Below are positions 46,101 to 46,768 of a stretch of 64,000 bases of DNA, piece by piece. Every line of letters begins with the position of its first letter. Within the stretch, counting starts at the first letter, position 1. Location of the stretch: positions 642 to 64,641 of the forward strand of contig RFHK01000021.1 in NCBI GenBank assembly GCA_003695825.1, given 5' to 3'. Under the pieces are notes generated by a model. It saw only the letters and a list, made by a program, of their open reading frames with translations, was not told the DNA's origin and searched no databases. Both the position numbers and the translations under genes were made by a program. Source of the stretch: Gammaproteobacteria bacterium. Its GTDB lineage: Bacteria > Pseudomonadota > Gammaproteobacteria > Thiohalobacterales > Thiohalobacteraceae.

Positions 46101-46538
46101 ACCACCATCGTCAACTGGGACCGCCAGGAACTGGTGATCCCCAACAAGTCCTTCATCACCGGCCAGCTCATCAACTGGACGCTGTCCGACACGGTCAACC
46201 GCGTGGTCATCACCGTGGGCATCGCCTACGGCAGCGACGTGGAACGGGCACTGGCCCTGCTCGAGGAGGCCGCGCGCGAACATCCCCTGGTCCTGGACGA
46301 TCCACCGCCCCGCGTCACCTTCGAGGAGTTCGGGGACAACGCGCTCACCCTGCGCCTGCGCGCCTACCTCGACGACCTCGACTACCGGCTGGCGATCATC
46401 ACCGACCTGCACCGCGCCATCAACGAGAAATATGCCCAGGCCGGTATCGAGATCGCCTTCCCGCAGCGCGACCTGCACCTGGATACAAAACAGCCGCTCG
46501 AGATCGTGCTGCGCGAGGAGGCGCGTAGGCAGAAGTGA
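43134..46538 (+). CDS. MscK/KefA-type large mechanosensitive channel
   Basis: 1134 aa. Signal peptide, long periplasmic coiled-coil region, about 11 TM helices, C-terminal MscS core ([45 protein letters not shown]). Confidence 0.88.
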   Translation: [1134 protein letters not shown]

Positions 46539-46768
46539 GGCGTGAGGGGTGAGGGAGCTGGGAGCCGGGGGGGCTGGAAGACAGAAGACAGAAGTCAGAA
46601 GTCAGAAGTCAGAAGTCAGAAGACAGAAGTCAGAAGTCAGAAGACAGAATTCAGAAGTCAGAAGGGCTGAAACCAAAGGCCGATGCTGAATCTTCTGACT
46701 ACTTGCTCCCAGCTCCCAGCTCCCAGCTCCCAGCTTCCAGCTCCCAGCTTCCAGCTTCTGCTCACGCC
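46535..46768. repeat. composite heptamer-array element: 3x GTGAGGN, AGCTGGG/AGCCGGG, 12x (A/T)CAGAAG, spacer, then 7x CT(C/T)CCAG, ending in inverted GGCGTGAG termini
   Basis: Read directly. Sub-arrays at 46535-46555, 46581-46664 (12 units, exact period 7) and 46706-46754. It occupies the whole mscK/dcd convergent spacer, and both stop codons lie in GTGAG units. Confidence 0.9.

Follow-up and report, generated by a model that had tools for sequence, protein, structure and literature searches.

What kind of element fills the gap between two convergent genes when that gap is, for the most part, a stack of tandem 7-nt units? The question is raised by a 64,000-nt stretch of DNA from a bacterium of the family Thiohalobacteraceae (Gammaproteobacteria; GenBank assembly GCA_003695825.1, contig RFHK01000021.1, positions 642 to 64,641; hereafter the window, in whose numbering all positions without a contig label are given). 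In this window, the convergent genes for an MscK-like mechanosensitive channel (mscK) and for dCTP deaminase (dcd) are separated by a heptamer stack of 234 bp (46535-46768), as seen by reading the sequence and with Tandem Repeats Finder (TRF). The comparisons described here reveal a dispersed, polar and modular foldback family located at the 3' ends of genes, with the same build as the cassettes that carry a PF05635 (23S_rRNA_IVP) gene, which agrees with the proposal of an initial annotation of the window that the spacer could be an intergenic repeat, and supports a dispersed, fast-evolving family. It can be further proposed, with moderate confidence, that the spacer is a full copy of a polar, modular foldback family that colonised the gene ends of this genome, is the gene-less counterpart of the PF05635 cassette, and acts as a hairpin at the RNA level.

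Architecture and folding of the mscK-dcd spacer

Within each arm of the element, modules of tandem heptamers follow one another from the stop codon inwards in the fixed order GTGAGGN, AGCTNGG and CAGAAGN. A 5' purine arm is combined with a mirrored 3' pyrimidine arm, and therefore, the element reads alike from both convergent genes. The element and the genes that flank it comprise the following parts:

43134-46538, + strand: mscK-like mechanosensitive channel gene (Pfam MscS_TM, MS_channel and MscS_porin; list of open reading frames, ORFs; own gene call)
46535-46555, + strand: purine arm, outer module, GTGAGGC/GTGAGGG/GTGAGGG (sequence, TRF)
46556-46580, + strand: purine arm, middle module, AGCTGGG and AGCCGGG (46556-46569), then degenerate GGGGCTGGAAG (sequence)
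46581-46664, + strand: purine arm, inner module, 12 in-phase (A/T)CAGAAG units (TRF)
46665-46692, no strand: non-repetitive 28-nt core, or loop, GGCTGAAACCAAAGGCCGATGCTGAATC, within the centre at 46665-46705 (sequence)
46693-46705, + strand: pyrimidine arm, inner module, TTCTGAC and degenerate TACTTG (sequence)
46706-46754, + strand: pyrimidine arm, middle module, seven CT(C/T)CCAG units (TRF, 7.4 copies)
46755-46768, + strand: pyrimidine arm, outer end, CTTCTG and CTCACGCC, overlapping the dcd stop and largely native dcd sequence
46762-47328, - strand: dcd, dCTP deaminase, 188 aa (Pfam PF22769; orthologues 88-91% identical in relatives)

The layout of the spacer and the order of its units, as originally described, are reproduced by the sequence and by TRF, and the ORF list and independent gene calls agree with the initial annotation in placing both flanking stop codons inside the element (TGA of mscK at 46536-46538; stop of dcd at 46762-46764, TCA on the + strand). 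The last codons of mscK (CAG AAG), the longest ORF of which begins at 42903, and its TGA lie within units of the element, and the TGA triplets at offsets 1, 8 and 15 of the GTGAGGN units place a stop in all three frames. The (A/T)CAGAAG array has a TRF score of 141 (12.6 copies, 91% matches), with a single ACAGAAT unit; the CT(C/T)CCAG array corresponds to CTGGGAG on the dcd sense strand. Two parts of the original description do not hold: the element is not built 'entirely' of heptamers, given the non-repetitive core, and of its supposed inverted ends, the right-hand one, GGCGTGAG, is mostly native dcd coding sequence. In relatives without repeats, dcd ends in AAGGCGTGA or AAGGCCTGA; the stop context AAGGC(G/C)TGA is ancestral, as judged by comparison of the relatives, and hence the right-hand 'inverted end' is largely native. 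Only the tail and stop codon of mscK look element-derived, mscK of G001, a genome of the same genus, having a different end (...GGTTCATAG).

Both strands of the spacer are predicted to fold as a single long imperfect hairpin (dG -107.7 and -105.7 kcal/mol; z -4.5 and -4.3), with no shuffled sequence folding equally well, which is in line with the partial self-complementarity of the two halves noted at the outset. The bidirectional terminator that was also suggested then is unsupported as far as the canonical intrinsic type is concerned, with no combination of a stem and a T-run detected in 46300-47700. A promoter scan found no promoter-like site in the region of the element, and an Rfam search of the element yielded nothing above the threshold, only sub-threshold matches to miRNA precursors, that is, hairpins. 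Elsewhere in the window, the only above-threshold Rfam matches are a thiamine pyrophosphate (TPP) riboswitch (3942-4049, - strand, 60.4 bits) and a tRNA gene (12974-13046, - strand).

A polar and modular repeat family at gene 3' ends

The census of arrays, made with TRF at a score of at least 40, covered the source draft assembly (G000; 2.13 Mb in 209 contigs, 69% GC, completeness 93%), in which 2004 genes, with 90% of the sequence coding, were called with an own codon-usage caller. This genome-wide count, which the initial annotation had put forward as a check, yielded 132 period-7 arrays with ∼980 units, compared with none in the base-shuffled genome, so that the focal element is not a local oddity. 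Among other periods, period 8 accounts for 2 arrays, and periods 10, 11 and 13 account for 16, 18 and 20 arrays, respectively. Three unit families dominate, namely, AGCTCCC/AGCTAGG and similar units, CAGAAGT/CAGAAGA/CAGAAGG, and GTGAGGN, with AGCTNGG being the most common in this genome. Nearly all arrays are intergenic or overlap gene ends, and all show a strong purine/pyrimidine skew. A period-7 array is found within 60 nt of 20 of the 418 contig ends; the arrays contribute to assembly breaks, and therefore, the census undercounts them.

The orientation of the arrays follows that of the adjacent genes. Among the arrays nearest a stop codon, the purine motif is located on the sense strand of the respective gene in 75 of 90 cases, and in spacers that contain both orientations, the purine arm precedes the pyrimidine arm in 15 cases, with the reverse order never observed. 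In the spacers of co-directional (tandem) genes, 34 of 38 purine-sense arrays are found close to the upstream stop, and 18 of 22 pyrimidine-sense arrays close to the downstream start. The order of adjacent modules is equally regular, AGCTNGG followed by CAGAAG in 27 of 28 pairs, with GTGAGG, if present, being outermost. The polarity is, arguably, set by a factor that is linked to the direction of transcription or translation termination.

Arrays occupy 8.4% of the convergent spacers, compared with 2.7% of the tandem and 1.4% of the divergent ones. This enrichment is what would be expected of a terminator for convergent gene pairs, and such a role would also fit the long predicted hairpin and the ordinary GC hairpin with a T-run that repeat-free relatives (G003, G011, G015 and G017) possess at the same place in the spacer between apbC and dcd. 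The terminator would have to be an unconventional one, either an unusual hairpin or a Rho entry site at the C-rich, G-poor pyrimidine arm, left unpaired through the unequal arms. This possibility appears very unlikely because no T-run follows any stem and because many copies are found in co-directional pairs, directly adjoining the following start codon, a place at which termination would do harm.

The polarity rules also agree with those of published repeats proposed to fold into G-quadruplexes (G4) (PMC4692102), and the CTCCCAG array, as (CTGGGAG)n on the dcd sense strand, contains the canonical G3N4 motif. The arrays could thus be regulatory repeats of the type proposed for the GGGAATC units of Xanthomonas, in which the folded G-rich strand modulates the neighbour genes. 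Such an explanation is highly improbable, given that a canonical G4 motif is present in just 18 of the 132 arrays and that the largest focal module, the 12-unit CAGAAGN array, has none and lacks G-tracts altogether. As a common denominator of the arrays, the G-quadruplex was rejected on the count of 18 arrays.

The stop codon lies inside a heptamer array in 27 genes of this genome and within 12 nt of an array in 48. The initial statement that coding and a period of 7 are incompatible, therefore, needs a qualifier, because these 27 genes end inside arrays. The last residues of the array-ending genes are written by the repeat units (in the window, at 39473-39475, ∼9518 and 61980-61982), so that a slip by one unit would alter the tail of the protein.

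Recurrence of the same unit families elsewhere in the window was correctly noticed in the initial annotation, but the number of other loci is four spacers rather than five:

47333-47520, no strand: sister element in the apbC-dcd spacer, with six GTGAGGN units, a CCACGGAA-type 9-mer hairpin core and CCTCAC units
39435-39490, + strand: single arm, AGCTCCC/AGCTCCT x7, which fills a convergent gap and gives the minus-strand gene its TAG; the recurrent units are delimited at 39440-39488, and the orthologous arm of G001 is built of other units
9502-9538, + strand: single arm of five TCCCAGC units that overlaps a minus-strand gene at its end
61920-61985, + strand: single arm in the standard module order, ACTTCTG x5 then CTAGCTC x5, abutting the stop of a minus-strand gene

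Within the single array at 61920-61985, the units change gradually.

The centres of the elements recur as well. The 28-nt core of the focal element has about six related copies elsewhere in the genome, including those on contigs C191, C151, C166, C181 and C88; the cores on C191 and C151 are identical in 32 of 32 positions, and the arm copy numbers differ between these two loci. Beyond this genome, there is one doubtful match to the core in each of G008 and G034, and no exact match in metagenome contigs. A second type of centre is a conserved non-coding core of ∼250 nt in at least five copies (C88:14866-15130, C132:3767-3990, C184:11399-11602, C128:2494-2529 and C148:31620-31651), with up to 87% identity over 160 nt, which is enclosed by or lies beside CAGAAG arms and terminates in a small TCCCGTAACGGGA hairpin. 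The third type is represented by the CCACGGAA-type 9-mer hairpins, for example, in the apbC-dcd spacer (47375-47490). Identical cores combined with arms of differing length indicate that the elements were probably copied or homogenised whole, with the arms drifting afterwards by slippage.

A second repeat family consists of hairpins with arms of tandem 8-9-nt units of the CCACGGAAA / TTTCCGTGG type. Such hairpins are found in the window at 47375-47490, 63214-63320 and 9463-9475, in G001 (C100/C560), in G006 (at 612 kb and 2330.7 kb), and in L013 and L015; they cross genera of the bacterial family, some being nested in heptamer arms and others standing alone.

The search for enzymes that could spread the repeats was negative. 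No match to reverse transcriptase (RVT_1, PF00078) was detected in G000, G001, G006 (a complete, array-rich genome), G010, G012 and G014, and an origin from a reverse transcriptase, as in diversity-generating retroelements (DGR), which had been considered in view of the resemblance of PF05635 to Avd, was rejected on the basis of these six genomes. Likewise, no match to the Y1_Tnp transposase, the enzyme associated with repetitive extragenic palindromic (REP) elements and known as RAYT (REP-associated tyrosine transposase), was found in G000 (93% complete), and the RAYT/REP mechanism was rejected as well. Thus, the repeat-spreading enzymes that were searched for do not appear to be involved. 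The element has inverted arms; no target-site duplication is evident at its ends and no transposase partner was identified.

The arms turn over fast between species. In G001, the flanking genes are ∼76-86% identical to those of G000 at the DNA level and the convergent mscK-dcd arrangement is retained, with a wholly different spacer of ∼750 nt, in which 9-mer arms are combined with a large centre and with (TTCTGAA)x4 adjacent to the dcd stop. At the orthologous place by a pgsA-like gene, the arm is CCAGCTT x3 and CTGAATT x2.5 in G001, compared with CCAGCTC/CCTAGCT x7 in G000. The apbC-dcd spacer contains GTGAGG arms enclosing a 9-mer hairpin in G000, the 9-mer hairpin alone in G006, NNCTAGG arms in G010 and CTTGTNT arms in G002. 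No other assembly of the locus was found by an exact look-up of the Dcd protein or with an mscK anchor in metagenome contigs. After a DUF1614-like gene, G001 additionally contains several diverged tandem units of ∼45 nt with GTCATCCCGGAAGCCCGCGCA (C455:1-265 and C560:45-330), which have a palindromic flavour (GTCATTCCGG...CCGGAATCC); this REP-like family is absent from the same spacer of G000.

PF05635 cassettes and the possible origin of the arrays

The source assembly encodes exactly one PF05635 protein (119 bits; gene at C60:3630-4022, - strand), within a cassette (C60:3543-4124) that has the following order: host TGA, (AGCTGGG/AGCTAGG)x10, 35 nt with a Shine-Dalgarno sequence, the 130-aa ORF, 40 nt and (AGCTCCC)x6.6. 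The GC content of this ORF is 48%, both overall and in third codon positions (GC3), compared with a GC3 of 90% in the adjoining host gene. The best homologues of the protein, with 57-63% identity, are found in Opitutaceae, Acidobacteria, Verrucomicrobia and Planctomycetota, and therefore, the gene is foreign. The protein matches the pentameric structure of Xanthomonas XCC0516 (2GSC; E 1.5e-24) and TIGR02436; the match to the Avd model is weak (22.9 bits, with a cut-off of 80).

The association of PF05635 genes with heptamer arms extends far beyond this genome. G006 contains a 59%-identical PF05635 gene at the orthologous site, with different arms, and most PF05635 genes in the relatives lie between inverted heptamer arrays, the units being particular to each. 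In a cross-phylum sample of 71 PF05635 loci with sufficient flanking sequence, drawn from many phyla, a period-7 array is present on at least one side in 46 and inverted arms in 32; of the upstream arms, 45 of 55 are rich in purines, and of the downstream arms, 43 of 51 are rich in pyrimidines. The PF05635 gene of Xanthomonas vasicola, of a Xanthomonas metagenome-assembled genome and of Pseudoxanthomonas is located between accB and accC and has arms of GGGAAT(C/G), the published genome-wide heptamer of Xanthomonas (PMC4692102). In G000, the arms of the focal element and of the cassette both carry AGCTGGG/CTCCCAG modules. The CAGAAGN module is not found in the cassette of G000 but is present in the arms of close homologues elsewhere. 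The focal element itself encloses no PF05635 ORF, its core being just 28 nt long.

The co-occurrence with PF05635, together with the regular 7-nt phasing, could also be accounted for if the toroidal PF05635 pentamer, or another factor, bound the 7-nt units on DNA or RNA, making the arrays functional operator-like or packaging sites instead of hairpins. In support of such binding, the closest PF05635 homologues in other phyla have CAGAAKT-like arms (L102, L113, L116, L151 and G006), and PF05635 is related, with the weak match mentioned above, to Avd, the nucleic-acid-binding partner in DGR (PMC10053308). Binding is, nevertheless, quite improbable as the explanation because the units vary widely among genomes with related proteins, three unrelated-looking units accompany a single PF05635 gene in G000, and G008 has arrays without a cassette.

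In the account favoured here, the family would represent, without the gene, the counterpart of a small cassette acquired horizontally, in which inverted heptamer arms surround the gene for a PF05635 four-helix-bundle protein. Replication slippage would rapidly alter the arms, in both copy number and unit 'dialect', with the structure as a whole being retained or re-formed at gene 3' ends. The focal element would be transcribed as the 3' untranslated end of both mscK and dcd and fold into a long imperfect hairpin that, by analogy with intervening sequences and REP elements, might be cut by RNase III or block 3' exonucleases, setting both convergent 3' ends. As a by-product, the outer GTGAGGN units would close the three reading frames and supply the stop codon of mscK. 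As the function, we infer a transcribed 3'-end hairpin with slippage-prone arms.

Several observations weigh against this account. The arm copy numbers of the focal element are poorly matched (12 versus 1-2 and 2 versus 7), and among the occupied spacers, 44 contain a single arm and only 11 are paired, so that the hairpin is not the whole story; the abundance of single arms and the unequal arms argue that hairpin formation is not the sole constraint on the arrays. The density of period-7 arrays is 6.2 per 100 kb in G000. The link to PF05635 is supported by the contrast, at the same TRF threshold, between 31 arrays in 551 kb of sampled DNA from other PF05635-bearing genomes (G031 being excluded as well) and 3 arrays in 600 kb from genomes without a PF05635 match (G003, G005, G009, G013, G039 and G040), but this contrast overstates the independence of these data because the sampled genomes are kin; some of the samples are also small. 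Several genomes with PF05635 have no arrays in the ∼20 kb sampled of each. Conversely, G008 is rich in arrays (also 6.2 per 100 kb), and its sole PF05635-like gene, which scores 26-28 bits, is located by a reverse transcriptase, without heptamer arms, and therefore looks like Avd of a DGR. Finally, neither blastn nor tblastn detected a remnant of the cassette interior in the gene-less copies, and therefore, the kinship rests on arms, position and polarity. The derivation of the gene-less copies from the present cassette by deletion was rejected for lack of such remnants. Weak PF05635/Avd-like genes by a reverse transcriptase, with no heptamer arms and with the look of diversity-generating retroelements, are found both in G008 (C9:7398-8229) and in G007 (C136:10753-12304).

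Some of these observations are readily explained if the arrays are plain simple sequence repeats (SSRs) that were born by slippage and grew in place, with 7 nt as the slippage unit favoured by the replicase, with no mobility, link to a gene or function, and with the inversion being a by-product of convergent genes that each grow an array. Heptanucleotides are the commonest class of long SSRs in many bacteria, with polymerase slippage as a proposed cause (Mrazek 2007, summarised in PMC4679880 and PMC4692102), and the excess of single arms, the unmatched copy numbers of the two arms and the graded unit changes within one array would all follow. Slippage is, nevertheless, unlikely to be all there is, although its probability is not negligible: just a few unit families recur, at more than 100 loci, and both their order (27 of 28) and their polarity relative to stop codons are fixed; paired arms are found in co-directional gene pairs as well, where the pyrimidine arm adjoins the following start codon; identical cores are found at separate loci; and sister genomes of similar GC content are nearly free of arrays (the 3 in 600 kb). 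The gene-less foldback family remains the preferred reading.

The cassette may seed arrays or merely lodge in pre-existing ones. It is an unlikely proposition that heptamer-armed hairpins are seeded and disseminated at the 3' ends of genes by the PF05635 cassette, or a factor travelling with it, with neither a transposase nor a reverse transcriptase involved. If true, the GGGAATC repeats of Xanthomonas, the short tandemly repeated repetitive (STRR) sequences of cyanobacteria and the repeats described here would be footprints, devoid of the gene, that were left by a single new type of mobile or repeat-writing system with kinship to the 23S rRNA intervening sequences.

Comparison with known repeats and elements

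The element was initially not recognised as a member of a described family, but the class has been described, as heptanucleotide long SSRs (LSSRs) and as the GGGAATC repeats of Xanthomonas (PMC4692102). In the summary given in PMC4679880, LSSRs (Mrazek, Guo and Shah 2007) are slippage-prone, with period 7 being over-represented among non-coding tandem repeats and a sporadic phylogenetic distribution, in all of which they resemble the arrays described here; the STRR heptamers of cyanobacteria are mentioned in PMC4692102 as a described class. As far as these summaries go, both are presented as SSRs without reported polarity, module order, paired arms or enclosed cores, all of which are seen in G000.

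The closest parallels are the GGGAATC repeats of Xanthomonas and the GGGGA(C/T)T repeats of Nostoc, both of which consist of 7-nt units in tandem and are, with few exceptions, located in intergenic regions (Rehm et al. 2015, PMC4692102). Their G-rich strand is sense within 50 bp after a stop codon and antisense just before an ORF, they are rare between divergent genes, and their length and sequence vary between close species; the Xanthomonas repeats form 70-75 inverted pairs per genome, with the PF05635 gene unmentioned (PMC4692102). The arrays of G000 share the tandem 7-nt units, the intergenic placement, the polarity relative to stops and starts, the inverted pairs, the rarity between divergent genes and the variation between close species. 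They differ in having three unit families stacked in a fixed order, compared with one unit in Xanthomonas and Nostoc, and in that most of the units cannot form G4, in contrast to the GGG tracts of the published repeats, which were proposed to form G4. Furthermore, the published analysis draws no link to a gene, whereas the Xanthomonas PF05635 gene is found here to be flanked by GGGAAT units.

The link between PF05635 and genome-wide heptamer repeats was not found in the literature searched, where only the heptamers of the Coxiella intervening sequence were encountered: this 23S rRNA intervening sequence contains tandem heptamers, the copy number of which varies between strains, and is excised by RNase III (PMC4990558). 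More generally, the 23S rRNA intervening sequences with an S23p/PF05635 ORF (Coxiella, Leptospira and the Xanthomonas-type 2GSC) have inverted arms that form a long stem around the ORF for the four-helix bundle (PMC4990558). The focal element, in contrast, lacks an ORF and lies between protein-coding genes rather than in rRNA. The cassette of G000 differs as well, in that it follows the stop codon of an mRNA.

The REP elements and bacterial interspersed mosaic elements (BIME) of enterobacteria and Pseudomonas, which stabilise the upstream mRNA, resemble the focal family in being dispersed mosaic palindromes at gene 3' ends, often between convergent genes. The elements of G000, however, lack the conserved 35-nt palindrome with a GTAG head, their arms consist of tandem heptamers, and no RAYT was found. 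MITEs (miniature inverted-repeat transposable elements), such as Correia and RUP, are likewise short, non-autonomous and present in many copies, with inverted ends, and can supply stop codons. Unlike MITEs, the elements of G000 vary in length and commonly consist of a single arm; a target-site duplication was not seen at their ends, and a parent transposase was not identified.

In many bacteria, heptamers make up the most common class of long simple repeats, for which an accepted explanation has been lacking since 1990 (STRR) and 2007 (LSSR). G000 provides a rule-bound example, with three ordered unit families, a stop-linked polarity of purine followed by pyrimidine, and at least 27 gene tails or stops written by arrays. 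In practical terms, such arrays break short-read assemblies and can mislead the annotation of gene ends. The connection of the Xanthomonas repeat with the gene for a protein of solved structure (the XCC0516 family) makes the puzzle testable at the bench. Thus, compared with the known systems, the class itself is not new; new are the ordered three-module arms, the strict polarity of the arms (15 to 0) and the recurrent cores, as well as the tie of the published Xanthomonas repeats to the arms that flank the XCC0516-type gene, a link that was not found in any paper of the literature searched.

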